Shown one piece after another: positions 9,379-28,734 of a DNA stretch of 64,000 bases. Each line of letters begins with the position of its first letter. Position 1 is the first letter of the stretch. The translations under genes and the position numbers were made by a program. Source of the stretch: an uncultured Lachnospiraceae bacterium (GTDB lineage Bacteria; Bacillota; Clostridia; Lachnospirales; Lachnospiraceae); the NCBI GenBank assembly GCA_951800145.1, contig CATOJE010000001.1, positions 59,234 through 123,233 of the forward strand. Direction: 5' to 3'. The notes beneath the pieces are model-generated. The model was given only the letters and a program-made list of their open reading frames with translations. It was not told where the DNA came from and made no database searches.

Positions 9379-10170
9379 TCAATCCACCAAAATCCTCCGT
9401 CCCCCCTTTTCTTCTCTCCCGGCGCTTCTTTCGCCCTGGGAAATCTCCTCGATCACCGCGCACATAGCCTGATACAGCTCTTCCCTCCGCCTTCCCGCCA
9501 GTCTTTTGCTTCTCCGTCTAAGATAGTCCTCCAGTATCCCCACCGGCACCACACCCGGGCTTAAAAGACAGGTATAGGCAAACATGCGGTCCTCCGGCTG
9601 CCCGCCCTCTGCCTTCAGGATACACTCTGCAAAATACCGGGTAATGTCCGGGGCCAGTCCCTGTCCGCCCACGCCGCCCCAGTCCGAATCGATCACATTC
9701 ACCGTATCATACACGGTTCCCATATCCGCGAAGCAGGTGTACTGGTCACGAAGCCGCGCCCCCTTCCGCAGGTGAAAGCGGCAGAGCTCGAATGACTGCT
9801 CCTTCTTCTTTTCCTCCCTCTTCTCAGAGGGTTCTAGGCAGAAATTCATCTCATAAGAAAGATAATCCGGGCAGCTCTCATCCAGCCGGATCCTAAGCCG
9901 CAAAACCTGCAGCTGATTAAGCGGCTCATAAAGGATCCGGGTCTCCTCTGGAAGAAGACAGATAAACCGGCCGCATTTCACCATTCCCGGGGCAATGAGC
10001 AGCGCGCCGTCCTCCACCCGGATGCCGCACCCCTGCAAAAATCCCTGCCCATACTCCTGATACTCCAGCTGAAGGTGGGAAAAAGCATAGTCCCGCAGTG
10101 ACCACAAAAGCTCTTTCTTTAGCACCCGCTTTCCCTCAAACAGCGGATACCGATTCTCCTGCTTCTCCAT
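9379..10170 (-). CDS. Conserved protein of the injection-like operon; N-terminus resembles baseplate/fibre-attachment domains
   Basis: PLFEGKRVLKKELL..LRDY...Y..YGQGFLQGCGI..DGALLIAPG pattern; no helicase motifs. Confidence 0.5.
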   Translation of the reverse strand: MEKQENRYPLFEGKRVLKKELLWSLRDYAFSHLQLEYQEYGQGFLQGCGIRVEDGALLIAPGMVKCGRFICLLPEETRILYEPLNQLQVLRLRIRLDESCPDYLSYEMNFCLEPSEKREEKKKEQSFELCRFHLRKGARLRDQYTCFADMGTVYDTVNVIDSDWGGVGGQGLAPDITRYFAECILKAEGGQPEDRMFAYTCLLSPGVVPVGILEDYLRRRSKRLAGRRREELYQAMCAVIEEISQGERSAGREEKGGRRILVD

Positions 10171-10197
10171 CCGTCTGCCTCCTCTCTCTGCGCAAAC

Positions 10198-12977: not shown

Positions 12978-13035
12978 GCCGCAAAAGTAATGAATATAGG
13001 CAGGAAAGTAATTTTTCTTTTCTCTAATAAAGTAT
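12978..13035 (-). pseudogene. Short N-terminal remnant of an immunity-like paralog (B')
   Basis: LLEKRK and YFPAYIHYFC match LLKKRK and YLPAYIQYKC of the 13787-14328 gene, with the TM segment deleted. Confidence 0.5.
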
Positions 13036-13653
13036 GTATCTTGGATCTGGCCATTGCTTTAAAAAATACCATCCTTCCCCTAACGAATTAAATTCATACA
13101 AATACATTTCATTTACATTTAAACTTAAAGGTACTTTGGGTGAATAAATAAACTTTAGTGACATATTTGCTGTGTCATAGTAATACAATTCAACAACAAT
13201 AATCTGCGATTTAGGCATTATACCAAAATTTCCCGCAAAATTTCCTGATACCGTAATTTCACATCCATCTTTTGGATAATTCCGGCTCTTGATTGATAAT
13301 CGTAAAAAATCCGTCAAGGGATTCTTTGATTCTATAATCTTCGATTGATTTAAATAGTCATCCCTTAAATAGTATATCGTCTCTATTCCAAATTTCTCTG
13401 CCGAAAACTCTACCGATTTAAAATCCCAGTTCTCTATACTTTGATAAAAGTCCTCTATCCTCCTAAATTTATCTCTATGCTTTAAAAATACGTCTTCCCA
13501 ATATTCTCCACTCAAAAAGGTTCTTTTTTCCGGCGGAAATATCATATGGCGATAGTGAAGGACATAAAATGAAAGGGAATAATATATAATAGTGGTTAAT
13601 ACTATAGAGGATAGAATTCCGCATAAATAGATAATAATATATCGTTTCTTCAC
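13024..13653 (-). CDS. Membrane-anchored hypothetical protein, immunity-like (paralog A)
   Basis: N-terminal TM, C-terminal FIYSP...LGEGWYF; AT-rich. Confidence 0.65.
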   Translation of the reverse strand: MKKRYIIIYLCGILSSIVLTTIIYYSLSFYVLHYRHMIFPPEKRTFLSGEYWEDVFLKHRDKFRRIEDFYQSIENWDFKSVEFSAEKFGIETIYYLRDDYLNQSKIIESKNPLTDFLRLSIKSRNYPKDGCEITVSGNFAGNFGIMPKSQIIVVELYYYDTANMSLKFIYSPKVPLSLNVNEMYLYEFNSLGEGWYFLKQWPDPRYILY

Positions 13654-13786
13654 AAGTGATTATCCTTTCGATATTGTTTATCTTTTATTTTAAAGAAATT
13701 TACCTCGTTACTTTATTACAATAACAACACCTTTTTATAATTTCCCTTTCAATTATCGCAATTTTTAAGTCATCATATACCATCAC

Positions 13787-14328
13787 TTATCCCCCGCTGG
13801 AAGTCTTTTTCAATTTGATTGGCTCATAATGATAAATTACAAAATACCAGTCATCTTCTAACTGCTCTGAATAAACAAAATTCTCTTCTTCGATTTGAAT
13901 TCCTGGAGCGTACAGAAAGGAAACAAGATCTTCCCCCTCCTGATATCGTCCTATATATCCAAATACCGCCCATCTATCCCATACAAGTCAATTTCGTCTA
14001 AGTCGCCGTGAATAAACACATCGATACCATATCTTTTCTCCGTTACAAAATCCCAGCTCCTGTCCTCCTGAAAAAACTTCTCCATCTCTTCAAATTCAAG
14101 ACGATTGTCAAAAAAATACGTTCGCATCCGCTCCGCATCGTGGTAGTGCGCTTCCTCTATTCTCCAGCACTTGTATTGAATATAGGCAGGGAGATAGGTA
14201 AACAGGAGAAAATGAGTGAGCGCTACCACCGGCAGCGTAAAAAATCCGGCCAGGAATATTATAATTGATTTTCTTTTCTTTAATAACATACGCATCTTGG
14301 ATCTGGTCATTGTTTTAAAAAATACCAT
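13787..14328 (-). pseudogene. Frameshifted membrane-anchored immunity-like protein (paralog B)
   Basis: ORF stops at 13951, but the +1 frame continues GGIWIYRT...FLYAPG...QLEDDWYFVIYH to TAA at 13787, the same C-terminal motif type as paralog A. Confidence 0.6.
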
Positions 14329-14410
14329 CCTTCCCCCAACGAATCAAATTCATACAAGTATATTTCACTTATATTTAAACTTAAAGGTGCTCTCCCCGGT
14401 ATCACAAAAC
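14269..14410 (-). pseudogene. 3' remnant of a second copy of paralog A (A')
   Basis: 14269-14388 aligns without gaps to 13013-13132 (about 13 mismatches in 120 nt by hand count); Trp codon changed to TGA. Confidence 0.75.
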
Positions 14411-14419
14411 CTAACTTTA

Positions 14420-16420
14420 TCACCATCTCAGCTTTTTACAGCTCTCGCTAATTCGTTCTTCAATCCGTCTATATTTCTTCGAAACCTCTGGCATATTAAT
14501 AATCCCTGAATAGTTAAGTGAGTTTTTAACTCCAAATAAAAGATGCATTACGATCATTGATTTACCAAATGCTGTTCGATATGACGGCAAATCGATAATT
14601 CCATTGGGTTTAAAAAATATTTTTTCTTCTTCCTCTCGCAAATAGTCGATATATTCTAATAAATCCAGAAAAATTTTATATTGCTCTCTTTGTATTAACA
14701 ATTCATAGCTTGATTGACGGCTATATGAATCCTCTCTTCCGTCATACTCACGCCAGGCGCATTCCCGGAGCATTTCAAGAAGGACACTGTCTCTTCTTAG
14801 CATTGCCATAAGTTCATATCCACGCGGCGACATGTAAAGCTTTGTCTCATTGCACAAAGAAGCTTCTGTATCTAATGTTTCAATATCATCTATATCTTCG
14901 ATGGATTTTCTCAATACTTTCTTTTCAAAAAGAAATACTAACGCGCGATAAAATTTTTCTTTACATTCATCATCAAAAATTGTAGACCAATGCTGGCAGA
15001 TCCGATCTAATCTTTGAGCATTTAAACCATATGTTACTTCCTGTGTTGCCTCTTCCTTTTGCTCATATTTAATAAAATATTTCATAACAAGCAAACAATA
15101 AATACTATAATCTTCATTTTCAGAAGATAAAAATATATTTGGAATAACTGAATCCTCTGTTCCAGTAAATACAGCCGAATTGTTACATCCTATCGAACGA
15201 ATAATATTTATATTGTTAAAAGTATATTCTCGCGAATTAACCGAAAAAAAAGCATCCTTTAAACGATTTCCCTGCACCCAAAATCGATTCGCAAATATTC
15301 GGGAATAAGTGGCCAGCGCTTCACGAATATTCATAAAGCACAAATTGAGGATCATATCTTTATATTTTCCTTCAAATGCATCGTTAAGATATTCCAATTC
15401 TCTATAGCAATCATCCCAAGAGTCCTTATTACCGATCTCTTTGTTAGAAGACTTTGTATAATAATCAAATCGCTTTTTGAAAAGTACACTTAAATCAATC
15501 GCGTTTTTCTTTAGAACCGTATTTGTCACGATTGAAAAAGCTTCCAATCTTCTCAATGTCGCGTTAAACTCACATTTTTGATATAGTCTTAATGTATGCG
15601 GACGAATAGAGATAAGCAAATTAATTCGGTATTCTGAATCATCAGGAAAATCTGTATTATTCATACATTCAAACAAATGCAAATATGCTTCAATTACTAA
15701 ATCTTGTTGCTTTTCCGGTAATGTTTCAACATCATCTAAAAGAATAACCAATCGGTCGTATGTAGAATATTTACATTTGATAAAATATTTCAATTTATTA
15801 GCAGCGTACTCAAATGGATGCTCCTTTTCCGCATATTTCAATTTAGCTTTTATTTCATCATCGTATGATAAATTCATAAGAGATAAATCATTCTTCATTT
15901 CAAGGATTCTTGGAGTATGCTTTCTTATAAATACATAAAATGATCTTCTGCCTTCTTCTGTCCGCACTACATCACGTAGTTCTGGATGAGCTTCTTCGAG
16001 TGTAGTACAAACTGCTGCAATACGCCCTTCAATGTCAAGAGATTCCGGTTCCTTTTTTCTGGCTCCATCAAAAAAAGTAGGAAAAACGACGATACATTTA
16101 TTTGGTGTTCTCTGCGATTGAGTCGTAAGACGTGAAACATTACTCACTCCAAGATTAAGGCAATGGCGGATGGACGTTGTTTTTCCTATTCCTGTATATC
16201 CCACACAAAATTTCATGGAATTTCGAATCGAATTCAAAAAGCTATTCAATGAATTTTCAAAATTTTCATCCGTTACATATAATTCTTCAAACGTCTTATC
16301 ATTGGTTGGCATTGGTTCTCCTATGAATAAGTTATCAAATTGATATTTGAATTTCCTGTAAATATCATTTTCTCCAACATCGCCTACGATCGTAACATGA
16401 TCACAAATTCTGTAACGCAT
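14420..16420 (-). CDS. P-loop NTPase (STAND/KAP/ORC-like), candidate conflict or defence protein
   Basis: Walker A GYTGIGKT, Walker B LVILLDDVE, LLISIR sensor; strongly AT-rich. Confidence 0.75.
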   Translation of the reverse strand: MRYRICDHVTIVGDVGENDIYRKFKYQFDNLFIGEPMPTNDKTFEELYVTDENFENSLNSFLNSIRNSMKFCVGYTGIGKTTSIRHCLNLGVSNVSRLTTQSQRTPNKCIVVFPTFFDGARKKEPESLDIEGRIAAVCTTLEEAHPELRDVVRTEEGRRSFYVFIRKHTPRILEMKNDLSLMNLSYDDEIKAKLKYAEKEHPFEYAANKLKYFIKCKYSTYDRLVILLDDVETLPEKQQDLVIEAYLHLFECMNNTDFPDDSEYRINLLISIRPHTLRLYQKCEFNATLRRLEAFSIVTNTVLKKNAIDLSVLFKKRFDYYTKSSNKEIGNKDSWDDCYRELEYLNDAFEGKYKDMILNLCFMNIREALATYSRIFANRFWVQGNRLKDAFFSVNSREYTFNNINIIRSIGCNNSAVFTGTEDSVIPNIFLSSENEDYSIYCLLVMKYFIKYEQKEEATQEVTYGLNAQRLDRICQHWSTIFDDECKEKFYRALVFLFEKKVLRKSIEDIDDIETLDTEASLCNETKLYMSPRGYELMAMLRRDSVLLEMLRECAWREYDGREDSYSRQSSYELLIQREQYKIFLDLLEYIDYLREEEEKIFFKPNGIIDLPSYRTAFGKSMIVMHLLFGVKNSLNYSGIINMPEVSKKYRRIEERISESCKKLRW

Positions 16421-16426
16421 TATACT

Positions 16427-17104
16427 TCATCCCCTTCTTCTATTTTTATCTATTTTAAATGATACCTGTCCTTCCACTAAATTAATTTGCATTAAATACT
16501 TTCCTGTATAGTTTTTCTCTTGAATGTCCTGAATGGAATAAGTGATTTTTTTCTCAAAAAACATACTGCCATCTGATGAATCATATAATATGAAATATAA
16601 ATTTTTCGATTCTCCAGGAGAAAGCCTCTGGCAAATCAGTTTATTTTCAATTTTACAGTTAGACGCAATGCTTTTCCCAATATTTTCCATTCTGGCATAT
16701 ATAATCCTATATCTGTCATTTTTTACTCCGATTTTAACTTTAGGATTTTCACTTATATGCTTATTTTTTCTTACCCCACTGATATTTTTCTCTTGGCAAG
16801 GTTCAATTAATATTTGTGGGATTTCACTCCTTTTTTCTATCACTAACTTAACGTATGAAGTTACTACCGCTGAAATAATGATATTCATTACTCCAGCAAC
16901 ATACGGAAGAAATCTCTTACATATAGAAACTGCAAAGTTGCTCTGAAATTGATTCATTAAAAGCTCTATTAAAGCTGGTTGAATATATTTAAATACAATC
17001 CATAACATAATAAAAAGCAATATAAATAACCCTATTAAAATACCATTCTGTATCAATCCTTCCCTTTTTTTATTTTCCATGATATAACCTTCTTTCTGGT
17101 GCAT
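16427..17104 (-). CDS. 2-TM hypothetical protein coupled to the NTPase
   Basis: Two N-terminal hydrophobic helices then a beta-rich domain; 6 nt from the NTPase start; likely start 17080. Confidence 0.65.
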   Translation of the reverse strand: MHQKEGYIMENKKREGLIQNGILIGLFILLFIMLWIVFKYIQPALIELLMNQFQSNFAVSICKRFLPYVAGVMNIIISAVVTSYVKLVIEKRSEIPQILIEPCQEKNISGVRKNKHISENPKVKIGVKNDRYRIIYARMENIGKSIASNCKIENKLICQRLSPGESKNLYFILYDSSDGSMFFEKKITYSIQDIQEKNYTGKYLMQINLVEGQVSFKIDKNRRRG

Positions 17105-17156
17105 TCTATCATTTTAATCTTTTCTTTATATCTATCCTCTTAGTAAAACCATTGCA

Positions 17157-17753
17157 TTAGAAATAAACTTTTTCTCCAGAGAATATCTCCAACACCTCTC
17201 CCATAAACTCCCCCACCCAGCACCGCTCCACCTGTTCCAGCCCCCGGATCTGCCGGATACGGGGAAATAATCCCTCCAGCATCGGCGCCAGCAGTCCCCG
17301 GGAAACCAGATAAAACTCCTCCCCCAGGGAATAAAGGAGCTTATCCAGCCTGCTGCCCTCCACCCGGGTCTGACGGGCAAATTCCCGGGTCAGCTTCTCC
17401 CGAAGCTCCCGAAAGCAGGATGATACCAGAAGAAAATCCCACCCACATCCACATTCCATCGGTGAGCTCCGTCCCCTCTCATCATAAAGATCCACCCGAT
17501 AGGGCAGCACTTCCAGCAATGTGGAGGTCCGCAGGTACGAGACCGCCAGATACATGGCCGGCCCGGCAGCCTGTCCGGACTCCAGCTGACGGTAATGCTC
17601 TGCCGCTGATTCCAGGCAGCATAGAAAGGAGCTCTCTGTATCTGGGCGCCGCAGCTCATACTCCCTGAAAATCTTCTCCCTGGCACTCGCCAGCTCTTCC
17701 CAGGCCAGGCGATCCATCTCCTGGAGGAACTTCTTTGCCAGCTTGTCTTCCAT
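17157..17753 (-). CDS. Conserved hypothetical protein of the injection-like operon
   Basis: SYLRTS...YRVDLYD...EC..W and VGEFMG motifs, recalled from N-termini of pentapeptide-repeat proteins in similar loci. Confidence 0.55.
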   Translation of the reverse strand: MEDKLAKKFLQEMDRLAWEELASAREKIFREYELRRPDTESSFLCCLESAAEHYRQLESGQAAGPAMYLAVSYLRTSTLLEVLPYRVDLYDERGRSSPMECGCGWDFLLVSSCFRELREKLTREFARQTRVEGSRLDKLLYSLGEEFYLVSRGLLAPMLEGLFPRIRQIRGLEQVERCWVGEFMGEVLEIFSGEKVYF

Positions 17754-17765
17754 ACTTCTCTCCCC

Positions 17766-18295
17766 CTAACCTTTCACCGGAAGCAGCTCCAGCTTAAAAT
17801 CCATGATTCCCCGCCGCAGCAGGCTTTCCGCCACATCCAGCCGGATCACCACGATCCGGTTCTCAGTCCCTCCAACCCGGAAAATACCGGCATCCCCGAT
17901 GGCCTCCCGATCCAGAACACACTTCTCCACCCGATTACCCCAGCGGTTCCACTGACTCTCTGAAGAAAGGCAGGAAATCCGCTGGAAAATCGGCGCGTAG
18001 TAAATGCAGTATGCATCCTTCTGGTTATGGATCAGAAACAATTCCTTAAACCGGAGCAGAGGATCGTAAAGGGAAAAACCTCCTTCATCTCCTCCCGAAC
18101 CAGATAAATCTGCTGTTCCAGGACACTAGGAAAGTCGCAGTCCTGATCCGAAGAGATAAAGGCCGGATTATGATCTGGAATCCGCCGGCCGCCCTCTATG
18201 TACAGATCTTCTTCCCGCCTGATGATATCCCGCAGGTTGCGGATATAGGGCAGATGGCGGTATCGGTTATCCTGTGTTAAACGAAAATACTCCAT
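17766..18295 (-). pseudogene. Imm11/DUF1629-like adaptor, split by a -1 frameshift
   Basis: Adding one T to the T5 run at about 18074-18078 gives KEVFSLYDPLLRFKELFLIH and joins the two ORFs; C-terminus VIRLDVAESLLRR. Confidence 0.7.
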
Positions 18296-18858
18296 TACAT
18301 CCCCCAAAGCAGTATCCTTACCGTAATTACCTTAATCAGTTGATGCAGCATAAAATTGAAAACGGCAAAGAATATAACCATCGGTACACTGCAGCCTCCC
18401 AGCCTTCATAATTCTGCCTGCGTCTGAAAGTCCTTCTCTTTCTCTTTGCACTGATAGCTGTCCATCAGTCCCTTGAGCCGCCTCCAATAAATTTTATCGG
18501 CAAAAAATCCCATCATCGGGAAATAAATCAACGCATATAAAACCACACAGACGATTTGCATAAAGTAATATGATCTAGGCCCCATTTCATATAAATATTG
18601 TACCGATACCACGATTGGTATAATCTCCAAACATACATATTCGATCACCGCCAATATAATTGCTTCTACCACCATGATTCGGTAGATCAGCCAATAGGGC
18701 CCGCAGAGGGCTGCGGCTAAATTATATGCTTTCCGCTTATCCTCAATTAAGGCAAAACGGCGTAAATAATCCTTCTCCTTGCCCAGACAGCAAATGATGT
18801 CCGATACACGGTATCCACCGATTTTTCTCTCTTCTCTTTTGCTTTCTTCCTTTTCCAT
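18295..18858 (-). pseudogene. DUF2628-like membrane protein with a premature stop
   Basis: YNLAAALCGPYWLIYR motif. In-frame readthrough of TGA at 18406 gives RLGGCS plus a TM, ending TAA at 18295 overlapping the next ATG. Confidence 0.7.
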
Positions 18859-18861
18859 GCT

Positions 18862-20088
18862 TCATTCCTCCTGTTCAAGTTTTTCAGCAAGCTGTTCCTG
18901 CAGCCACTGCATATAGTCTGGATCATCTCTCATGTATTCTATATTCGTATATGCGTCCAAAGTCGTTCTAGCATCAAGGTCTTCAAACCTCCATTCCCAA
19001 AAACCTTGTTTAAAAGTATCCAACGCCTTTTCCACCAGTTCCTCCGCTGTAGCAAAATCATCTTGGTTATAATATATTTCTCCCAGTTTTAAATTGATAA
19101 GCGCAGTTCTCGCCAGATTCAGCACCCCGCTCTCTAATAATCTATCGAGACACTGGATTGCCTCGTCATACCTTTTCTCCCGGGTCAGAAGTGTCCCTTT
19201 ATCCATATATGCCTTTATAGAATCGCTGTCAGCTTCTGATAAATATCCCTCTGCTTCCTGAATCCATTTCTCATTGTATTCCAGAGCGAGCGGGTAATCA
19301 CCCTTTCGGTAATAGCTCCCCGTCAATCCCCGATAGACAAAAATATCCACTGCCCGGTACTGATGCAGCTCTTGATTCAACTGGAAAATCTGGTTATAAC
19401 ATTGGATCCGTTCATCTTCATCTCCACAGTAAGAAAGAGCCATATAGCTGTATAGCCCTGCAATATCATTTTTCCCTAACAGCCTTCTTTCGTCCTCTAA
19501 TAATTGATTTACTTCATCAACTAACATTTGTTCCCGATTATCATCGTATACATTTACAAACGGACCATAACACAATCGGTTTGCGCGGATAATCAAGGCC
19601 TGTATTGGATCCGTTACTTTTTTCAATACATGATCATACTTTAATGTAGCCTCATCATATAAGATGCCCTCCAGCTCCATCAAGCGGGTGCTTCCCAAAT
19701 TGTTTACAATGCAAACATCCACAGAATCACTTCTTGATGAAATCAATGCATCGTTTAAGATTTCCTTGGCTTCCTCGCATCGATCCAGCCGCAAGTACCC
19801 CACGCCGATTGCATTCATGACTTCGGGAGTTTGATCCATAGCAGACAGCTGCTCTATCCCGTCCATCACCGATGCCTCGTCCCCCTTTAATAATTGGATC
19901 GCTTCCAGATATCCCGGGTTTCCATCATCCTCGCACAAGATTAAAATACTATGTAAATCTGCCACATAATAAGTATTGTCCATCTGTAAATTTTCAGGGC
20001 TTTCCGGCGATGCTTTCTCACACCCGCTAAGGAGATACAGCGCTATAAAGAGAATGCTGATACTTTTGAAAAACCTTGATTTCTTCAT
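18862..20088 (-). CDS. TPR-repeat lipoprotein
   Basis: Lipobox LLSGC; TPR patterns (NAIGVGYL, YYRKGDYPLALEY, LGEIYYNQDDFATAEELVEKAL). Confidence 0.8.
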   Translation of the reverse strand: MKKSRFFKSISILFIALYLLSGCEKASPESPENLQMDNTYYVADLHSILILCEDDGNPGYLEAIQLLKGDEASVMDGIEQLSAMDQTPEVMNAIGVGYLRLDRCEEAKEILNDALISSRSDSVDVCIVNNLGSTRLMELEGILYDEATLKYDHVLKKVTDPIQALIIRANRLCYGPFVNVYDDNREQMLVDEVNQLLEDERRLLGKNDIAGLYSYMALSYCGDEDERIQCYNQIFQLNQELHQYRAVDIFVYRGLTGSYYRKGDYPLALEYNEKWIQEAEGYLSEADSDSIKAYMDKGTLLTREKRYDEAIQCLDRLLESGVLNLARTALINLKLGEIYYNQDDFATAEELVEKALDTFKQGFWEWRFEDLDARTTLDAYTNIEYMRDDPDYMQWLQEQLAEKLEQEE

Positions 20089-20163
20089 GTCTCTCCCTTA
20101 TAAATACTATACATATAGTGGTTTCTACTCTCATAAAAGTAAGACAGCTTTAGGTTTGTAAAC

Positions 20164-20850
20164 CTACCGTTTCCCTTCCTGTATAGTCTGGATCACCTGA
20201 TGCATAATCGGCTCCCAGTCCTCCCGTTCCTCACCATAGCAATTACACATACACAGAATCAGCTGCTGCTTCCGTCCCATAAGGGCCAGCAAGTTAAATA
20301 CCGGTTCATCCAATGTATCATTTCGGAAGGAGAACCACTCCCCGCAGCCCTCTTCCACAGAATAGCTCCCTGTATCCAGGATCTCCGCGTCCTGGCGCAG
20401 CTTCTTTATCAGTGCCCGGTATCGGATTAACGTTCCCTTAAGCTGTTCCTGGCTTGCCCTCTGCCGGAATGCGCTGAAGGTGAAGTTCACCCGGTTCTCT
20501 TCATCTGCAAAGATCCGCTGAGGCCGGTTCTCAGAGGGGTATTTCCTCTTTGCCTGTTCCTGCTCCAGGGCGGTGAAGCCTGTGGGAAGGCGGATCCAGA
20601 CAGGCTCCAGCGTCTTCTCTCCCGAAAACAGCTCCACCTCCTGGAATTCGATCCGCCTCGCTCCTGCGTACATGCCTGTATAAGTATCCGTAAAGCCTTT
20701 CTTCTTCTCCTCCATTCGCTCCCGGATAATGATTTCATCAAAATACTGTTTCACCATGCACCTCCCTGCGCGAATCACCGCACAAACATTCTCCACGTTC
20801 TCTGCACTTTCTATATTTTTTGCATTTTTTACATTTTCTTCATATTCCAT
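20164..20850 (-). CDS. DcrB/DUF1795 (PsbP-like) putative effector adaptor
   Basis: IRLPTGF...KYPSENRPQ.IF...VNFTFS and C-terminal CNC...W..IM..VI; directly after the VgrG fragment. Confidence 0.55.
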   Translation of the reverse strand: MEYEENVKNAKNIESAENVENVCAVIRAGRCMVKQYFDEIIIRERMEEKKKGFTDTYTGMYAGARRIEFQEVELFSGEKTLEPVWIRLPTGFTALEQEQAKRKYPSENRPQRIFADEENRVNFTFSAFRQRASQEQLKGTLIRYRALIKKLRQDAEILDTGSYSVEEGCGEWFSFRNDTLDEPVFNLLALMGRKQQLILCMCNCYGEEREDWEPIMHQVIQTIQEGKR

Positions 20851-20909: not shown

Positions 20910-21527
20910 CTATTTAAACTGGATATCCAGCCCGTTCTGCCGGATTCCATCCTGGAGCATCAGCATGGTTTCATTTTCCTGCAGGGTGATTCCATTTTCA
21001 CCCTCCACCAGGATCGGGCCCTGGCTGGTGAGGGAAATGCCGTCTGACGCGGTCAGGGATATCTGCTTTTTGCTTTTTATGGTGATTCCCTTCCGGTCAT
21101 CCAGCAGGATCCACATCCCCTTATGGTTCGTGATCCGGATTTGATTCGGCGTGAACCGCACTTCCTTATCGTAAATCGTCCGGATGGATTTCTCCTCCGG
21201 ATTTTTCCGCTTCTCATCCACCACCCCCAGATGCACCGCGCTGGAGACGTATCCATGATCCTCCGTCTCATCCGGAAAATACAGCCTCACCTGATCCCCC
21301 TCCTCCGGCATGCAGTACCAGCCAGTTCCGTCCGGGGAGGAGTATACTGTCGCATAGGCGTATTCCTTGCTGCAGGCACCGGGGATGTCCTCACAATCCA
21401 TCCGGATCCGAACCTTATCCTGCTTCACCGACTTCACCTTCCCCATAAGAGAACAGCCAATCAGACGGTCATTCTCATAGGGTTCCTGGTAAAAGCCCTC
21501 CTCCCTGCGCAGGGTATAGTGGCCCAT
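20910..21527 (-). pseudogene. VgrG/gp5 (baseplate spike) C-terminal fragment: OB-fold plus beta-helix
   Basis: GKVKSV..DKVRI...YATVYSSPDGTGWYCMPEEGDQVRLYFP OB-fold signature, then beta-strand repeats (I.L.A..GISL.S); gp27-like N-terminus absent. Confidence 0.75.
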
Positions 21528-21541
21528 AAGCGCACCCCCGG

Positions 21542-22801
21542 TCAGACAGATTTTGCGTTTCCCCGGAACCGCTCTCTGGTCAGCTTCATCTTGCTGTACT
21601 GGTCTAAGGACACATCGGGCACCACCGCATACCAGACTGTATTGCCAAAGTCGTTCTTTGCATTAGTGGTGTTTAAGTAGGTAACCAGACGGGAGAAGTT
21701 TGAGGTCTTTGCCAGTGTTTCATTGGATACATTGGTGATCAGCATGGACGGCCGCATACCTTTAAGCTTTTTGGGATACTGCTCAAAATAGCACCAGATG
21801 CCTAATAATTTTTCGATTAAGGGCTTTACTGTCTTGATAAATGCATCCTTGGATTCCCGGTAAAATTCCAGGTAGGAATTATAGTTGGCAACCTCCTGCT
21901 CCTGGTCGATGGTGCCCTCCATGGTGGAGGTCAGGGGGCAGAAGGTCCGGGCCACCAGGGCTGCCACATAGTCATTCCCCTCTTCGTTAATGGCGTTATA
22001 ATCCTCCTTCAGCGCTTCGATCAGGCCGAAGTTTACATGATCATCTACCGTGGCAAGGGCGGTGCTCTCCACCTTGGGCGCCTCTAATACTCTCAGCTCT
22101 CCCCCGTCTCCCATGCTCAGGACTCCTAAGGCTAAGGGAGTGTGATCCTTTTGATTCCCCCCGTCCCCCAGCAAGAGCCGGGTTTTAATATCCTCGATGG
22201 CCAGAGGCAGCATGGCCATCACATTATTATAATTGGCGCTGGCCTCCTCAAACATTACATTCAGCTTATCTGCCAGATCCAGCTTCTTCGGGTCGCCTTC
22301 CTCCAGCTTGGCGTATTCTCCATAGGTATACTGCAGCTCCTTCCGGTTCTGCTTGATGGAATCCATCACCTTTTTCGGGGAAATCATGTCTGTCAGCTTT
22401 TCGAACTTAAAGTCAACATTGATCATCCCCTCCGCCCGCTTGGTATCCACCATATTCATCAGCATTCCCATGAACTCATTCTGACGGTTTAAGGGGATCT
22501 CCGTCAGCATCTCCTCCGGCACCTGCTCCGGCTTCTCCAGCTGGTAAACTACCTTTTGGTTGTTGGCATTATAATAGCAGTAAACCGTGGGGCCAAACTT
22601 TTCCAGCACCTCATCGAAGCTGCGCACCAGCAGATGGTCGTTAATCTCCTTAATCTTATCATCAGACAGGCTTTCCACACCCCGGACATCTCCTACCAGA
22701 GTCACCAAGTCCATCTTCTCCGGATTGATTACCTCCATCAGCATGGTCCGGTTCGTCTGCTTAATCACATTTCCCATATGAATGCTCCGCCTTTTGTACA
22801 C
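21542..22801 (-). CDS. Large conserved protein of the injection-like operon, probably C-terminally truncated
   Basis: Likely start MGNVIKQ at 22777 with RBS; ends abruptly at RERFRGNAKSV* where the VgrG frame begins; no HTH seen. Confidence 0.55.
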   Translation of the reverse strand: MYKRRSIHMGNVIKQTNRTMLMEVINPEKMDLVTLVGDVRGVESLSDDKIKEINDHLLVRSFDEVLEKFGPTVYCYYNANNQKVVYQLEKPEQVPEEMLTEIPLNRQNEFMGMLMNMVDTKRAEGMINVDFKFEKLTDMISPKKVMDSIKQNRKELQYTYGEYAKLEEGDPKKLDLADKLNVMFEEASANYNNVMAMLPLAIEDIKTRLLLGDGGNQKDHTPLALGVLSMGDGGELRVLEAPKVESTALATVDDHVNFGLIEALKEDYNAINEEGNDYVAALVARTFCPLTSTMEGTIDQEQEVANYNSYLEFYRESKDAFIKTVKPLIEKLLGIWCYFEQYPKKLKGMRPSMLITNVSNETLAKTSNFSRLVTYLNTTNAKNDFGNTVWYAVVPDVSLDQYSKMKLTRERFRGNAKSV

Positions 22802-22810
22802 GTTATCCTT

Positions 22811-24625
22811 TTAAAGCCCCTGCTTTTCACTGGGTTTTAAGCTTTCATAGTGAATTTCCATCTCTGTCTCTCCATCTGCGAAGGAAATAGTGAGCTTCCC
22901 ATGATAATAAACCGGATATTCCAGCCCCTTTTTCACGATCTCCATTCCCCGCATCACAGTGCAGCCCTCTGACTGGTCCACGATCATCAGGGCGTGATCG
23001 GATCCAGGATAGAAAAGGATATGCTCCCCTCCAGCCTGCCCAAGGTTAATGCCACAGTCCTCCAGGATCTGCTTCAGTGTCAGGCTTCCTGACGAATGTC
23101 CGAACAGACGATAGGTCTGAGGCGGAATATCCCTGCCTCCGGGGGTCCGCACAGCATACAACATCAGCTTGCCGGAAAAGGGCTCTGCCTTTGGATTTAT
23201 TTTTTGTTCTGTCCTGCCAGGCATACGGCTCTTTTTCCGAAACCAAATCAGAAGCAGTACAAAAAGAGACAGAAAAAGCCCGCACAGAATCCCCAGAAAG
23301 GGACGATAGTCAATCACCGGCACAAAAACCGGATCCGAAGGCTTCTCAATCTGAATCCTGACCGGCTGCTGCAGCTCATAGATCTCTTCGGTTTCCTCCA
23401 GCTCTACCGTTACCTCCAGCTCATCCACAGAATCGACCGGTAAGGTCTGCCTCAGCTGGCCCTGCTGTATCTGACCGGAATAAGGGATTCCATTAATGGT
23501 ATAATGCATCTCCCTGCCTTCAAACCTATCCTGTCCCCACAGATTCTCTTGCTCCTCTGTGACTGTGACAAGCTGGATAGCGGCCTCTGCATAATGCTTA
23601 TAGACCGGCGGAATATTCTTTTTCACCTCTTCCTCTGACCGCGGAAGCTCTTCTGACCAGCAGCTTACTGTCACCTTGGGCGCCGCCACATACTGGGAGA
23701 TCCTGTAGGCCTCTACATCCGCCGCCTCCTCTGTCTCATAGCTGATAAAAAGCTCCCCGGGAGGGGGAGAATCCAGCTCCAAAATCAGGAACCGCTCCCC
23801 GGTTATCCGCTCCTCCCTCCCACCGGGAGTCCGAACCGATACCTCCTTTAGCTCCTTGCTCCCGGTAAGCACCAGCTTCAGGTGGCTTAATCCTGGCAAA
23901 ATCTCCTGGCGGATTTCCCCTCTGCCAGCTGCTTTATCATGGATCCCGGTGAGAACCTGGTGCGGGATCCGCATCCTCTCCTTCACGATGCGGTTCATAA
24001 TCTGGGAGACAGAGCCGGACTGGCCCTCCCAGTAGATAGCGCCATCGGTTATCTCCGCTCCGTCAAAGATATGGAGCCGTCCGCCTGCAGACGCTTCCCC
24101 GATGGCTACGATGTAGATGGGAATCCCCTTCTCCTTCGCCAGACCGGCCGCCTCTTCATAGCGTCTGCGGGACTCCTCCCGTCTCTCCTCGTCTGGCATA
24201 TCGATCTCGCCGTCAGTGAGCATCACAATATATCGCCCACTCACCTCCGGATCCGTGGAGAAAAGCGCAACCGCCTGATAAAGCCCATCTCCTGCATTCG
24301 TGTAGCCTGTATAGGAAATCCCCTCCAGCTGCGCTTCCAGCTCCTCTCTTCCCGCCCCTATGGGTGCCACCGCCTGGAGCTCCGTATTATAAGCCACCAG
24401 ACCGATTTGATCCCTGGGGGGCAGGCCATACATGGTTTGGCGCAGTGCATCCATAACCATATGATCCTTGTCATAGTGATTCATGGATACACTGGTGTCC
24501 AGTAAAAAGACAATCTCATTTCCTTTATGCGGATCGCCATCGCTGTCTGCTAAGGCCGTCCAGGCTGTATTCAAGATGAGGAAAAGTGTGATCCCCAATG
24601 CCAGCATCCTCTTGTGATGTTTCAT
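22811..24625 (-). CDS. Secreted, membrane-anchored VWA-domain protein with cytoplasmic C-terminal domain
   Basis: Signal peptide, MIDAS FLLDTSVSM, YTNAG, MLTDGE, C-terminal TM FLGILCGLFLSLFVLLLIWF. Confidence 0.85.
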   Translation of the reverse strand: MKHHKRMLALGITLFLILNTAWTALADSDGDPHKGNEIVFLLDTSVSMNHYDKDHMVMDALRQTMYGLPPRDQIGLVAYNTELQAVAPIGAGREELEAQLEGISYTGYTNAGDGLYQAVALFSTDPEVSGRYIVMLTDGEIDMPDEERREESRRRYEEAAGLAKEKGIPIYIVAIGEASAGGRLHIFDGAEITDGAIYWEGQSGSVSQIMNRIVKERMRIPHQVLTGIHDKAAGRGEIRQEILPGLSHLKLVLTGSKELKEVSVRTPGGREERITGERFLILELDSPPPGELFISYETEEAADVEAYRISQYVAAPKVTVSCWSEELPRSEEEVKKNIPPVYKHYAEAAIQLVTVTEEQENLWGQDRFEGREMHYTINGIPYSGQIQQGQLRQTLPVDSVDELEVTVELEETEEIYELQQPVRIQIEKPSDPVFVPVIDYRPFLGILCGLFLSLFVLLLIWFRKKSRMPGRTEQKINPKAEPFSGKLMLYAVRTPGGRDIPPQTYRLFGHSSGSLTLKQILEDCGINLGQAGGEHILFYPGSDHALMIVDQSEGCTVMRGMEIVKKGLEYPVYYHGKLTISFADGETEMEIHYESLKPSEKQGL

Positions 24626-24659
24626 GTGAACACTACCTCGCCTGTCTTAGTTTTTTGAC

Positions 24660-24727
24660 AAAATAACACATATTTTGACATAGTTCAACATAGTTTCCGA
24701 TTTTTGTTTGGTTTTTTCCAAATTTTG
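24660..24727 (-). promoter_or_regulatory. Putative LytTR(AgrA)-activated promoter of the VWA/injection-like operon
   Basis: CAAAATTTGGAA (24716-24727) and CAAAAATCGGAA (24695-24706), 21-bp period; 6 nt; TTGAAC-17-TATTTT with TG. Confidence 0.7.
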
Positions 24728-24781
24728 CATCATCTATAGTCAATAAACCGACTATATACCTGAGAGGTAAAAGGTTAAAGA

Positions 24782-24817
24782 GTACGGTTCACAGCCCTGC
24801 CGTTCACAGCAATAAAA
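24782..24817 (+). repeat. Left-end fragment of the 43438-43599 palindromic element
   Basis: 24787-24817 matches 43444-43474 at 27/31 nt. Confidence 0.65.
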
Positions 24818-24848
24818 AGAGGCTACCGCTTCTCTGGGGCAACCTCTT
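24814..24848 (-). terminator. Intrinsic terminator after agrB
   Basis: AAGAGGTTGCC...GGTAGCCTCTT stem followed by a T-run on the minus strand. Confidence 0.7.
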
Positions 24849-24855
24849 ATGATTC

Positions 24856-25446
24856 TCATATGTGAATTTTTCTTTTTTTATTTTTTATGACCCCGGCACA
24901 TAATAGTACGGCTACTGCCAAATGTCCTAATGCAGCAGCCAGGCTAATCTCCCTGGCGCCGATCCCATAGCACAGGAGCCAGAGGATGACTTCGATTCCC
25001 CATATACTCCTGCTTCGCTTCTGGTAGCGGATCCGTTCCTTCTGGTCAAATGGCTTATTCGGATCCTCCACCGGAGCCAGAAGGAAGATGCAGAGCCCGC
25101 ATAATCCGCTGGCAAGGAAGTCCGCCGCCAGCACGGCTCCTTCCGGAATTCGCTTTTCTATGATGCAGACTATACAGAGCATGGATGCAGATACCACTGT
25201 ACAGGTATTAAAGTTATCCGCGTGGTGCCCGCCCGCGTAGGAGCGCAGGGGGATAAAGAAGGCTAAAAAGACAGGGACGGTGATATATGCCCGGAATATG
25301 ACAGCCAAAAGACAGGCGATCAAAAGATTGACCACCTGTCCGATGAGCAGCTCATAGGCGTATTGGTATAATTTTTGCTCTTCCGATGACAGATAGCTCC
25401 GCTTCACCTGCCACGTCACAAAATAGTTCGCCAGCTTCTCAATCAT
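24856..25446 (-). CDS. agrB: AgrB autoinducer-processing membrane peptidase
   Basis: PLRSYAGGHHADNFNTC catalytic His/Cys motif; APVEDPNKP. Confidence 0.93.
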   Translation of the reverse strand: MIEKLANYFVTWQVKRSYLSSEEQKLYQYAYELLIGQVVNLLIACLLAVIFRAYITVPVFLAFFIPLRSYAGGHHADNFNTCTVVSASMLCIVCIIEKRIPEGAVLAADFLASGLCGLCIFLLAPVEDPNKPFDQKERIRYQKRSRSIWGIEVILWLLCYGIGAREISLAAALGHLAVAVLLCAGVIKNKKRKIHI

Positions 25447-25458
25447 GGTATCTTAACT

Positions 25459-25632
25459 TTAGAACTTGCGGAAGCGTTTTGCTTCTTCTGGGACTTGGGG
25501 CTGGTGATTCAGCCATGCGCATCCTGAATTCACATTTTGAACAACGGTTATTAATGCCATGGCGTTTAAAGCGAGCAATGCCCAATTTTTAGATTTTAAT
25601 TTCCCCCATGCGTTATGTAATTTTTTCTGCAT
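25459..25632 (-). CDS. agrD: AgrD cyclic thiolactone autoinducer precursor (57 aa)
   Basis: Not in ORF track. RBS GGAGG; MQKKLHNAWGKLKSKNWALLALNAMALITVVQNVNSGCAWLNHQPQVPEEAKRFRKF with the clostridial C-x4-HQP..P pattern. Confidence 0.92.
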   Translation of the reverse strand: MQKKLHNAWGKLKSKNWALLALNAMALITVVQNVNSGCAWLNHQPQVPEEAKRFRKF

Positions 25633-25676
25633 AATTGTAGTACCTCCTGCTGCTTCTTGGTTTAATATTTACGTTT

Positions 25677-25743
25677 ACCATACATATCTATTTTCCAAAA
25701 ATCAAGGTACTTTCCGAATTTTGTCCTTTTCTTCCGTTTTTTG
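25677..25743 (-). promoter_or_regulatory. Putative AgrA-activated agrDB promoter
   Basis: CAAAAAACGGAA (25732-25743) and CAAAATTCGGAA (25712-25723), 20-bp period; 6 nt; TTGATT-17-TATGGT; overlaps the agrC 3' end. Confidence 0.7.
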
Positions 25744-27060
25744 CACGTTTGATAGGGCCAGTGTCACGACAAACCGGCCATCCTCTTCCCCGATGTTTAA
25801 AATGCCGTGATATTTATAGGCCAGCTCTTCCGCCTGCCGCAGGCCGAAGCCATGCCTTTTTCCATCATTCTTTGTTGATAAGAAACGCTTCCCTTTTTTC
25901 TTATTCTGATGAACAAAATTGTTTTCTATATGAAAAACTACCATGGCCTGATTTCCCATATATAATTTAGCAGATATATTTCCATCTGTACATAGCTTCG
26001 CCGCCTCCAGGGCATTATCCAGCAGGTTTCCAAAGATCCGAATTTTGTCCGTCTCGCTGACAAAGTCCAGAGAGACGCTTGGTGATACCTCCAGATGGAA
26101 CCTCACACCTGCCTTTTTCGCTTCATTTTCCTTCTCAAGAAATATAGTATTGATTATGGGATCATGGAGATACATTCTATGGGAAAATGATTTCCTTTTC
26201 GTTAAAAGGGACGAGGCTTCCACCGATATTTTTTTTAAGGAGTCTGCGTTTTCCTGATCTGTAAAATTTCCCCGATCTGCAAATTTCTCAAGTGTCTTGA
26301 CAATGTGCCGCATTTCATGCAGATATGCCGCATACTCCTGATTCATCTCATCCATCCGCTGGTAGTGGCTGTGCTCCATCCTTGTTTTTAATTCCAGCAT
26401 TTCGTGTTCCTTGGCGGACTTTTCGGCAATCAGAAGCTTATCGACCACGGAAAAATTTATAATGTTACTTATCACCAGCAGAATTCCCCCCAGACAGATT
26501 AAAAAGTATCCTGACGGATGCTGATCCATCATGAGAAATCCGTTCAGTAAAATCATGCTGGATATCGGTAAGATAAACAATCGCCTTAACGTCGGATAAT
26601 TTTCTCTATTTGGCGAATACCATTTCCTCTTTCGGATTGTCTGAATCACTGTAAACTCAAAAATTTTCTCAACTATGGTTCGGAAGATCCATCTGGCGTC
26701 TAATGCAGAAACGTCCAGATTTAATGTCTGATATACCATGTGAGAGATAAATTCTGTGACCGCAAAAATCATGTAGCAAAGCAGCACATACACTATATTT
26801 AGCTTTAGATCAATGCGGAAGACCAGCCATACAAATACAATACAAATTAGCGGCATTCCCAACAGATTCAATGTCGGTATTCCTGCACTGTTAATGAAAA
26901 AAATGGAAATTGCACAAATTCCCCATTCGAGTATCCTTATATTCTTACGTTTTTCATATACTGGAAATAGTATCTCAAAAAAGCTGTAAAGAAAGAAAAT
27001 CTCAAACCCACAATTCACCAGCTTAACAATCTGATAAACCTGCCCTTCCACAGCCATCAC
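25702..27060 (-). CDS. agrC: AgrC-like sensor histidine kinase (GHKL/HPK10)
   Basis: About 6 TM N-terminus, H-box LHEMRH, N-box FGNLLDNALEA, STK..HGFGL. Confidence 0.88.
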   Translation of the reverse strand: MMAVEGQVYQIVKLVNCGFEIFFLYSFFEILFPVYEKRKNIRILEWGICAISIFFINSAGIPTLNLLGMPLICIVFVWLVFRIDLKLNIVYVLLCYMIFAVTEFISHMVYQTLNLDVSALDARWIFRTIVEKIFEFTVIQTIRKRKWYSPNRENYPTLRRLFILPISSMILLNGFLMMDQHPSGYFLICLGGILLVISNIINFSVVDKLLIAEKSAKEHEMLELKTRMEHSHYQRMDEMNQEYAAYLHEMRHIVKTLEKFADRGNFTDQENADSLKKISVEASSLLTKRKSFSHRMYLHDPIINTIFLEKENEAKKAGVRFHLEVSPSVSLDFVSETDKIRIFGNLLDNALEAAKLCTDGNISAKLYMGNQAMVVFHIENNFVHQNKKKGKRFLSTKNDGKRHGFGLRQAEELAYKYHGILNIGEEDGRFVVTLALSNVQKTEEKDKIRKVP

Positions 27061-27833
27061 TGCTTCCCTCCCGGATATTCTCCCCAGAATTTCCCCAGCG
27101 CTTCTTGAAATTCCTTTTGTTTGCTCCTGGCGACATTCAGTATTGTGTCACCCCTAATCGTAATGTACTCCTTGGAATTAAATATCACATGGTAGAGATT
27201 TACGATGTAGCTTTTCTTGGCATAGGCAAAGCCTTCCTCCTTCAGCAGCTCATAGTATTCCCCCAGCCTCTTACTGCTTTTCACCATATTTCCCTGGATG
27301 TCCTGTCCTAATGTACTCTGTATTCTGCAGACCCGATCCACCCCTTTTTCTGTCAGGTAAATGCCGCACCCCTTATCGAAAATATCGATATACAAAATTT
27401 CCCTGGAAGGAATGACGCAGGAATTACCATGGAATAGAATCGGTACATCTATGTCCTTCTGGCGCCGTCTGGCCTCCTCCATAAGCGTTTCAAGCTCTTC
27501 CCGGATTTTCTCCGGGTTTCGATCCTTCACCAGATAGCTAAAAGGCCGTACCTTCACGATGTCGCTGGCCGGAAAATCATAGGCAGTATAAAAGGACAGC
27601 AGCGCATCCGAATCCATCTTCCGGATCTGCTCTGCCGTCTGCCTTCCATCCATTTTCCCTTCCATCTGGATATCCAGGAAAATCATGTCATAGCTTTTAT
27701 AATCTTCCAGTAATTCCCTTCCGTCAGAAAATTCATAAAAGACTATCCTGTCACTATCCCGGCTGACATATTTTATCTGCTCCTTCAGAAACTCTATATC
27801 TCCATGACTGTCATCACATATTGCGATATTCAT
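27057..27833 (-). CDS. agrA: AgrA-like LytTR response regulator
   Basis: Likely start MNIAICDD at 27833; IFLDIQM phospho-Asp; LytTR KSYIVNL..V. Confidence 0.88.
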   Translation of the reverse strand: MNIAICDDSHGDIEFLKEQIKYVSRDSDRIVFYEFSDGRELLEDYKSYDMIFLDIQMEGKMDGRQTAEQIRKMDSDALLSFYTAYDFPASDIVKVRPFSYLVKDRNPEKIREELETLMEEARRRQKDIDVPILFHGNSCVIPSREILYIDIFDKGCGIYLTEKGVDRVCRIQSTLGQDIQGNMVKSSKRLGEYYELLKEEGFAYAKKSYIVNLYHVIFNSKEYITIRGDTILNVARSKQKEFQEALGKFWGEYPGGKQ

Positions 27834-27925
27834 TTCATCCCCCTGCTTTTTTTCCTTTGTACCAAAAGCCTTTATCATTATAAGGTGGATGTTCTTTCTT
27901 GTCAATGGAACCGCTTTAACTGGTA

Positions 27926-28447
27926 TTACTGATTTCGGCTATTGGGTTTGTCGTAGTCATTCAACTTATCCAACAACATCCGATAATGTTTTTGGCCAAT
28001 ATGTCTTCCAGCTCTTTGCAAGCCTTCAACACATTCTCTCACTTCATCTGCTGTCAACTCATTTTCTTCATAGGCTGCTATGAGTATACCTATTGTCCCC
28101 ATTACCTTAAAACCCATTTGAAAAGACACCATTCTTCCTTTTGCTTCATCCATCAGCAATACATCAGCATTTTGCTCATCTGTCAGAATGATGGCTTCGC
28201 TCTCCCCTTGGTCAAGCCCAGTTGCTCTTTTGAGTAAACTGGTATATTCTGGATTTTTCACAGTCTTAACTTTGATAAATTGCTTTCCTCTAATCTGATC
28301 TGCTTCAAATTTGAAACGTTCATCTGCTGTCAGCTCATCAAATACTGCCTGTGGTATAAGTACCTGCCCAAATAGTTTTTCAAGTAAACCCATACGATCT
28401 ATTTTGAGAAGCGATATCAGTGGTGTTGTATCTGATACAACTATCAT
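27926..28447 (-). CDS. PIN-domain (DUF3368) toxin-like nuclease
   Basis: IVVSDTTPLI, GLDQGESEAI, LLMDE..GR, GTIGIL. Confidence 0.85.
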   Translation of the reverse strand: MIVVSDTTPLISLLKIDRMGLLEKLFGQVLIPQAVFDELTADERFKFEADQIRGKQFIKVKTVKNPEYTSLLKRATGLDQGESEAIILTDEQNADVLLMDEAKGRMVSFQMGFKVMGTIGILIAAYEENELTADEVRECVEGLQRAGRHIGQKHYRMLLDKLNDYDKPNSRNQ

Positions 28448-28734
28448 TCTGTGGCCTCCCTCTTTTTCAACTGTCTGAACGCCTCCAGTTCTAAATCCAG
28501 ATCATCCATTGTCATATCCAAATATGAATACCCCAATTTGTCATAAATATCAATCAGCTCAGATTTTCTGATTCCCAAAATCTCTGCCGCACCGCCATGT
28601 GATATTGTCTGATTTAATATATATGGATACAGCAAAAGTGCATTTCTGACGAGCTCTGCTTCTGAGTTCATAACTTTCAGATATTTTGACATTCCTACCG
28701 GCACTCTTATTGTTACAGATTCAGTTGTTACCAT
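28444..28734 (-). CDS. UPF0175-like antitoxin
   Basis: ISHGGAAEILGI HTH; overlaps the PIN gene (ATGA). Confidence 0.7.
   Translation of the reverse strand: MVTTESVTIRVPVGMSKYLKVMNSEAELVRNALLLYPYILNQTISHGGAAEILGIRKSELIDIYDKLGYSYLDMTMDDLDLELEAFRQLKKREATE

Follow-up and report, generated by a model that had tools for sequence, protein, structure and literature searches.

Does the Agr-type quorum-sensing locus of this gut bacterium directly control the operon that follows it, and can that operon still act as a weapon? The window examined here is a stretch of 64,000 nucleotides from an uncultured Lachnospiraceae bacterium and is present in mouse gut metagenomes; the genome to which it belongs (G000) comprises 3.94 Mb in 148 contigs and is 86% complete. 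A preliminary description of the window had proposed that the local AgrA switches on an adjacent weapon operon. Our analysis points to a real and conserved regulatory link, likely to be direct control by AgrA, that sits on a disarmed copy of the operon.

The regulatory genes form an Agr-type locus, with family matches for AgrB, AgrD, a HATPase_c_5 kinase, and a receiver–LytTR protein (Table 1). The AgrD propeptide contains the Cys ring motif and has a predicted peptide core of CAWLN. Only one agrB and one agrD were found genome-wide, both at this locus, along with at least four other AgrA-like regulators located on contigs C2, C7, C54, and C82. The LytTR domain of the window regulator carries a clade-specific insertion, and the residues AKKS replace the usual loop motif. 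Because this protein scores only 20.7 bits against the NCBIfam AgrA equivalog, far under the cut-off, we consider it AgrA-like and not a staphylococcal equivalog. Its gene has a perfect consensus promoter that is not accompanied by a box pair, and therefore transcription of agrAC is likely to be constitutive.

Table 1. Features of the Agr locus and the adjoining operon, in window coordinates
Feature	Position	Strand	Details
Conserved core remnants	9379..12831	-	877-aa protein with actin/Hsp70-like ATPase motifs and 263-aa partner
Variable cargo	13024..20850	-	228-aa gene and split 91+91-aa gene (homologues in related loci); TPR protein with lipoprotein-like N-terminus, DUF2628, 198-aa gene; low-GC 225- + 666-aa insert (P-loop NTPase); related 125- + 209-aa genes
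VgrG C-terminal stump	20910..21527	-	PF04717; matches residues ~255-460 of 460-aa VgrG
Deletion junction	21540..21560	-	Sheath homology ends and VgrG homology starts at ~21550
Truncated contractile sheath gene	21542..22774	-	Residues 1-410 of ~727
VWA-domain protein, first operon gene	22811..24625	-	N-terminal signal-like and internal hydrophobic segment
Predicted VWA-operon promoter	24660..24688	-	TTGAAC 24688-24683, 17 nt, TATTTT 24665-24660
Operator pair 2	24695..24727	-	CAAAATTTGGAA 24727-24716 + CAAAAATCGGAA 24706-24695, period 21
Terminator-like hairpin with U tract, 3' of agrB	24811..24848	-	11-bp stem
agrB	24856..25446	-	PF04647, E 2e-37, 128.7 bits
agrD propeptide	25459..25632	-	57 aa, ...NSGCAWLNHQPQVP...; TIGR04223 32.4 bits, cut-off 19
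Predicted agrDB promoter	25677..25705	-	TTGATT 25705-25700, 17 nt, TATGGT 25682-25677
agrC-like membrane histidine kinase	25702..27060	-	HATPase_c_5
Operator pair 1	25712..25743	-	CAAAAAACGGAA 25743-25732 + CAAAATTCGGAA 25723-25712, period 20
agrA-like response regulator	27057..27833	-	Receiver + LytTR; likely start ATG 27833
agrA promoter	27877..27905	-	Consensus sigma-A TTGACA-17-TATAAT, 12/12 in promoter scan

A pair of 12-bp boxes precedes both agrD and the gene for the VWA-domain protein, and at each promoter 6 nt separate the pair from the −35 hexamer. On the minus strand, the four boxes, their two spacings, and the two pairs of hexamers are exactly where the preliminary description had placed them. 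With periods of 20 and 21 and a 6-nt gap, this geometry matches that of LytTR operators, whose repeats are ∼21 bp apart and 4–11 bp upstream of the −35 element. According to the accessible text of a study of such promoters (PMC6193735), repeats at this distance mediate autoactivation. The boxes of pair 1 overlap the last codons of agrC, whose reading frame ends at 25702. At the VWA operon, the −10 element is preceded by TG in the extended −10 position (TGt-TATTTT).

Neither the agrD nor the VWA promoter reaches the 9-of-12 threshold of the promoter scan, which instead reports a different weak site, TTAACC-16-TATAGT at 24778-24751, ahead of the VWA boxes. The terminator that had been proposed between agrB and the VWA gene is upheld in part: the hairpin and its U tract are present and fold with a z of −2.3 (5 of 200 shuffles fold as well), but the consensus terminator scan of the window has no entry there.

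The paired boxes are rare in this genome. Within the window, the only exact matches to CAAAAWWYGGAA are the four boxes themselves. When up to one mismatch is allowed, 13 matches are present, compared with 3.56±1.95 in shuffles, and none of 100 shuffles reaches 13. The whole genome has 21 exact single boxes and three exact pairs at 19–23 bp; two of these pairs are the agrD and VWA sites, and one is on contig C47. The last was rejected as a promoter, as it is located within a Q/K/E repeat of a 1115-aa reading frame and has no −35 element behind it. Weaker pairs on C4, C36, and C39 were also rejected, for low scores or for lack of promoter geometry. A matrix built from 10 boxes of the related loci L001, L014, and L015, with the window sites excluded, places these sites first and second (scores 32.8 and 31.5) among 37 pairs above threshold. 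The C47 coding repeat follows at 28.5, and the next site scores 20.2. Thus the genome-wide scan suggested in the preliminary description reveals a pair that is near-unique. Since a third promoter-like site does not stand out, the regulon looks dedicated to this locus.

The gene that follows VWA is encoded at 437 genome loci, of which the best 80 were collected, together with 28 further regions and loci from genus searches; the related loci are mostly from Lachnospiraceae. At 11 loci with agr upstream of VWA, the DNA upstream of agrD was compared with that upstream of VWA in the same genome by unguided best-window alignment. The alignment beats dinucleotide shuffles (0–2 of 200 reach its score) at seven loci, which are the window, L001, L002, L003, L014, L020, and L044. 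These seven are kin and not independent. No shared block was found by this alignment at L031, L067, L116, or L015. The first three of these fall outside the AgrA clade described below, and all seven positive loci fall inside it. L015 lacks agrD, yet its VWA promoter retains the box pair. Conservation upstream of orthologous VWA genes, for which the preliminary description had proposed a check, is therefore seen as a pair shared by the agrD and VWA promoters in 7 of 11 loci. Genus searches around L014, L020, and L044 (34, 51, and 2 genomes, respectively) did not yield new loci with both promoters, and a metagenome scan produced one locus, which is without agr.

The shared block is ∼36 bp long and sharply bounded. 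Across the seven agrD/VWA pairs, identity is 72% in the distal box, 76% in the spacer, and 70% in the proximal box, giving a range of 70%–76%, and outside the block it is 30% in the flank, 31% in the linker, and 30% in the −35/−10 spacer. The register for this profile was set on the proximal box and is consistent with the unguided alignment, which places the −35 hexamers in register even though they were not used. In all seven pairs, a −35 element starting with TT is present at the same distance from the block, and these first two T residues agree in 7/7. Elements of the form TG-n-TAYTTT occupy a matching −10 place in the window, L001, L014, and L015. Because the spacer matches as closely as the boxes do, duplication of a promoter or gene conversion may contribute to the resemblance. 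In L044, 28 of 29 bases are identical between the two operators, and the block alignment of L002 and L003 scores higher with the promoter of the sister genome than with the genome's own.

A tree of 26 AgrA rows groups the seven block loci and L015 in a single clade (support 99/95) that shares the LytTR insertion. This clade splits into two subclades, each with support of 100/99. The window, L001, L014, and L015 carry CAAWWWYGGAA-type boxes (A-type) and an AgrA loop of AKKS. L002, L003, L020, and L044 carry a TGYA-containing spacer (B-type) and a loop of PHDS, although the distal box of L044 resembles the window type. The predicted peptide cores also differ (CAWLN, CAWLD, CFWVD; CTWLH, CTWVH, CFWVH, CMWVI). 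Patterns specific to each type occur at two sites in their own genomes (one in that of L015), only at these promoters, and are absent from genomes of the other type (five genomes each). As the patterns were written from the sites themselves, these counts are circular where those sites are concerned, and what is informative is that no other sites turn up. The seven loci and L015 are not separated in the sheath tree, so the operator may track either AgrA or the operon itself. The block persists across AgrA proteins that are only 30%–45% identical to that of the window.

In Staphylococcus aureus, as far as the accessible text of one report goes, two direct repeats at P2/P3 are bound by AgrA, whose FhRhHRS loop contacts DNA (PMC4227749). 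The fact that the shared block changes with the AgrA subclade and with the predicted DNA-contact loop makes direct control by the cognate AgrA likely. The regulatory half of the original proposal is thereby strengthened by a pair that is rare, conserved, and variable in step with AgrA.

We also surveyed Agr and LytTR linkage more broadly. Among 46 de-duplicated loci with enough flank, a LytTR regulator is located within 5.5 kb upstream of VWA in 24 and was not found in 22, and agrB lies in that upstream stretch in 18. In nine loci (L027, L030, L032, L035, L039, L040, L055, L077, and L123), agrB abuts or overlaps the VWA gene, which, as judged from gene layout, is a second route to the same coupling of Agr and operon. 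A generic repeat test gives a weak signal, with z>2 in 6 of 24 LytTR-linked loci at period 20 and in 6 of 24 at period 21, and in 2 of 22 unlinked loci at either period. Lacrimispora-type loci have a strong TTACATG pair with a period of 21 and z of 3.6–4.2; there the regulator is present and agrBD is not nearby.

Several variants of this arrangement were observed. Repeats of the TTACAT type, spaced ∼21 bp and located ahead of the −35 element, accompany a different LytTR clade; they are found upstream of VWA in L006–L012 and L117 and upstream of agrD in L032, L035, L039, L040, and L055. In L004/L137, L116, and L124, a short AgrD-like reading frame (...ADGRASE[YF]G..QP...) lies between agrB and VWA, and thus after agrB instead of before it, representing a serine-type peptide and a different gene order. 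After agrA-agrC, L015 (3807-9955) has a BlaI/BlaR1-like pair (M56 peptidase) where agrDB would be expected. With its VWA operator pair kept, L015 is possibly a listener that is blind to the signal. L106 and L115, both from genome G317, share AAAAAACGGCAAAAAAYATGTCGATTTTTGG ahead of a TTGA −35 element upstream of VWA, and a same-strand LytTR gene is not nearby.

A separate observation concerns a Spo0A-box-like spot at 24650-24680 of the window, where TGTCAAA occurs twice at places matching those of relatives. The motif TGNCGAA, which we take to be Spo0A-box-like, is present in 17 of 59 de-duplicated VWA/agrD promoter regions (kin, not independent; L027 left out), compared with about 4 in shuffles (maximum 9). 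Its background is 8.5% of 1165 upstream regions of the window genome. Regions bearing the motif include those of L001, L003, L006, L020, L032, L039, L044, and L111. It is possible that these promoters have a second layer of control tied to sporulation.

The nature of the operon is most apparent in relatives, where the gene order is VWA, a 725-aa protein, two paralogues of ∼142 aa, DnaJ, DUF4280, two FHA proteins, PP2C, PP2C-TPR, proteins of 437 and 230 aa, a ∼880-aa Hsp70-like protein, a ∼260-aa protein, and VgrGs with variable cargo. By language-model features, the 725-aa protein has a likeness of 0.93 to TssC and phage sheaths. A structural model of the L012 protein, made from an alignment of 122 sequences, reached a pLDDT of 89.3 (an earlier model from 28 sequences was unusable at 47.5). 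Foldseek ranks T6SS sheaths as its top matches (E 7e-4), and alignment to 27 sheath entries from CIS, pyocins, phages, and T6SS gives Z scores of 15–22, with the next row at 7.0. The TssC-aligned range is 291-711. A PDB sequence search returned only a short spurious match. One of the two ∼142-aa paralogues is Hcp-like, matching TssD below the cut-off (E 0.012). VgrG of L010 matches Phage_GPD and Phage_base_V, both just at or below the cut-off, and the DUF4280 gene (E 2e-13) is presumably PAAR-like. Family and atlas searches gave no match for the conserved 437- and 230-aa genes, and TssJLM, ClpV, and TssEFG were not identified in the operon of relatives.

On the basis of the modeled fold and these domain matches, the operon in relatives is a contractile injection-type, T6SS-like system with a contractile sheath, a VgrG spike, and a PAAR-like tip. 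It is named T6SS-like because the support for a tube is weak and the baseplate and anchor were not identified. The system is probably antibacterial. The sheath-like family is widespread, with 437 genome loci that include Negativicutes, Clostridium, and a Treponema bin; it occurs in 22 of 401 family genomes and forms 618 clusters at 50% identity. Its database name is "transcriptional regulator."

The copy in the window is broken: a deletion joins sheath codon ∼410 to the middle of vgrG. The sheath reading frame is 716–757 aa in all 80 relatives fetched (the best 80 of 437), and the part that is missing covers most of the TssC-aligned range. When G000 was searched with 13 core queries, only the sheath and vgrG fragments and an unlinked DnaJ matched. 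No counterpart was detected in this 86% complete genome for the Hcp-like, PAAR-like, FHA, or PP2C genes or for another two members of the conserved core, and a second Hcp search was also negative. Since the deletion truncated both the sheath and vgrG genes, the operon is likely unable to build a working injector. The preliminary description, in which the operon was read as a putative weapon, had overlooked this deletion; what holds of that reading is the injection-type character of the operon in relatives, as indicated by the sheath fold. Damage is seen in relatives as well, including several that bear operators, with VWA split in two in L001/G005 and L044/G372 and the sheath affected in G084.

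Downstream from the junction lie cargo genes of mixed GC content (0.29–0.57), with putative immunity or adaptor roles. No toxin domain was recognized in the cargo by Pfam-type domain searches, and PHROGs, PADLOC, and relaxed Pfam searches provided no names for further cargo or core genes. The label of the 877-aa protein was read from sequence motifs, and the protein has no Pfam match. The two-gene insert at 14420-17104 has low GC content (0.29–0.33) and consists of the 666-aa P-loop NTPase and a 225-aa membrane protein, for which no PADLOC match was found. At 17766-18307, two overlapping 91-aa reading frames correspond to one gene of ∼180 aa in relatives, and this split looks strain-specific because run X2 differs by one base there. 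The related low-GC genes of 125 and 209 aa occupy 13024-14328, and the intervening DNA is a copy, 63% identical, of the C-terminal portion of the 209-aa gene; from its sequence, this segment may resemble a decayed array of immunity genes. Toxin–antitoxin-like genes are located on both the left flank (6996-9180: Fic, TfoX-C, a DUF4160 pair, and HicB) and the right flank (27926-28734: a DUF3368/UPF0175 pair), suggesting that the locus is an island.

From what is known of clostridial Agr biology, AgrB would process AgrD to a cyclic peptide, with the predicted core CAWLN, that is sensed by AgrC. The families of these proteins are observed, as is the consensus promoter from which agrA-agrC would be transcribed. 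Phosphorylated AgrA would bind two boxes that are spaced by two helical turns and end 6 nt ahead of the −35 element, and would recruit RNA polymerase to two weak sigma-A promoters whose geometry and conservation are observed. Binding at site 1 would create positive feedback, and binding at site 2, past the hairpin, would turn the operon on. The output in intact relatives such as L003, whose single locus combines B-type operators with the complete gene set, would be a sheath/Hcp/VgrG/PAAR-like contractile system. In the window strain, the output would be VWA, the two fragments, the cargo genes, and the Hsp70-like pair. We consider it quite probable that AgrA, phosphorylated on peptide build-up, occupies both pairs and thereby activates agrDB as well as the T6SS-like operon, with the deletion likely leaving no working injector.

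The features that favor this mechanism could in part be explained in other ways. The VWA boxes might be a relic, derived from agrD by duplication of its promoter or by gene conversion, such that only agrD is regulated and the operon is transcribed from another promoter. The inclusion of the spacer in the shared block, the near identity of the operators in L044, and the second weak sigma-A-like site at 24778-24751 are consistent with this idea, and selection may be weak on an operon that is decaying in the window. However, a relic would not be expected to remain sharply bounded and 6 nt before the −35 element in 7/7 pairs, or to persist across such divergent AgrA proteins while the linker and the −35/−10 spacer are at background identity. 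The retention of the VWA pair in L015, which has no agrD, also argues against a relic, and we regard this explanation as unlikely. The same upstream site would be the true start if AgrA bound both sites and repressed the operon. AgrA can indeed repress from a site downstream of a promoter, as described for bsaA in the accessible text of PMC4227749. This scenario seems quite unlikely given that the distance from box to −35 is fixed at both promoters in all seven pairs, that the TG-n-TAYTTT elements are found at a matching place in four loci, and that agrB–VWA fusions elsewhere imply co-expression with agrDB.

It is distinctly improbable, in our judgment, that the boxes serve another factor, such as the global regulator CodY or another LytTR protein of the genome. 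The A-type boxes do resemble the 15-bp palindromic CodY consensus, with 3–5 mismatches of 15, and the AgrA-like proteins on C2, C7, C54, and C82 are candidate binders. Yet a global regulator would have many sites, and these would not change with the local AgrA. A CodY site was rejected, as both window sites have 5 mismatches and 184 of 600 random AT-rich 48-mers do equally well or better; B-type sites have 5–7 mismatches. The three other LytTR proteins placed in the tree (C7 left out) fall outside the clade. A final possibility is that the junction is an assembly error, in which case the operon is intact and the preliminary description holds in full. The assembly is incomplete and fragmented, the contig of run X8 ends at 21522, and X10 has no junction-crossing piece among those listed. 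Nevertheless, the junction is bridged in two of four runs among the listed pieces, by single contigs of X2 (21061-28000) and X3 (20391-24062) that come from different studies. The X2 contig has a further 1-base loss within the sheath remnant. Together with the outcome of the core-gene queries, these contigs make an assembly error very improbable. Activation by AgrA of an operon that is truncated in this strain is therefore the reading we retain.

Quorum-regulated T6SSs of Gram-negative bacteria respond to signals of the AHL/LuxR type and are not known to respond to an Agr peptide. Like the window locus and its relatives, those of Chromobacterium and Pseudomonas place a contractile weapon under control of cell density, but the host is diderm and the T6SS genes are canonical, as far as the accessible text of the reports indicates (PMC9430734, PMC13538137). 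In comparison with S. aureus agr, as presented in the accessible portion of PMC4227749, the window has the same AgrA/C/D/B set with a LytTR regulator and likewise has a pair of direct repeats immediately ahead of both an autoregulated promoter and a separate promoter for the output. It differs in box sequence and in gene order (agrAC then agrDB, with agrAC under its own consensus promoter). Its output is a contractile injection-type operon instead of RNAIII, and its regulon seemingly comprises two sites. Streptococcal HdrR/BrsR promoters, from what the accessible text of PMC6193735 describes, also have repeats 4–11 bp upstream of the −35 element with conserved spacing and variable sequence, positive feedback, and an antibacterial output. 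Unlike the window system, they use a membrane inhibitor in place of an AgrBD peptide and kinase, and they control diffusible bacteriocins. The agrACDB order is shared with Clostridioides difficile agr2, another clostridial example, for which the accessible text (PMC3754575) mentions neither an operator nor a T6SS-like target. The window locus is physically coupled to its target.

The encoded apparatus resembles T6SS and other CIS (TssBC, PVC, pyocin, and Streptomyces CIS) in its sheath fold, its VgrG (GPD + OB fold), a weak Hcp/TssD match, and the DUF4280, FHA, and PP2C genes in the operon of relatives. It differs in having a single 725-aa sheath and, in relatives, genes for a VWA membrane protein, DnaJ, and Hsp70-like proteins. 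We do not claim the apparatus as new because T6SS-like loci of Bacillota were reportedly the subject of a 2025 preprint. In their accessible text, two 2026 papers present Bacillota as being without T6SS (PMC13556189; 10.64898/2026.06.16.732483). Our literature search, which left subscription papers and bioRxiv supplements mostly outside its scope, found neither Agr control of a contractile system nor this type of locus. Agr operators, LytTR control of antibacterial output, and Gram-negative quorum control of T6SS (PMC13538137, accessible text) are each already known separately. The new element is the regulatory wiring together with the lineage-specific operators.

A broader interpretation is plausible, although it falls somewhat short of probable. 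Gut Lachnospiraceae may fire a Gram-positive T6SS-like weapon under a dedicated Agr system, in which peptide, AgrA loop, and operator are specific to each lineage, with wiring established by a duplicated operator or by agrB fusion. The window strain would then be a disarmed, quorum-tuned cheater that still signals and still induces immunity-like cargo. The analysis names a predicted inducer and operator for a T6SS-like system of abundant gut Clostridia, which recent papers describe as without T6SS. Because such systems are often silent in culture, the predicted peptide and promoter would open the way to direct tests of expression and killing in a relative whose locus is intact. LytTR–DNA specificity could be studied in the natural series formed by the matched peptides, AgrA loops, and operators. 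The deletion serves as a warning for annotation, since a switch may be conserved even where the weapon attached to it is broken, and the window strain offers a candidate case in which to study how weapons are lost in the mouse gut.
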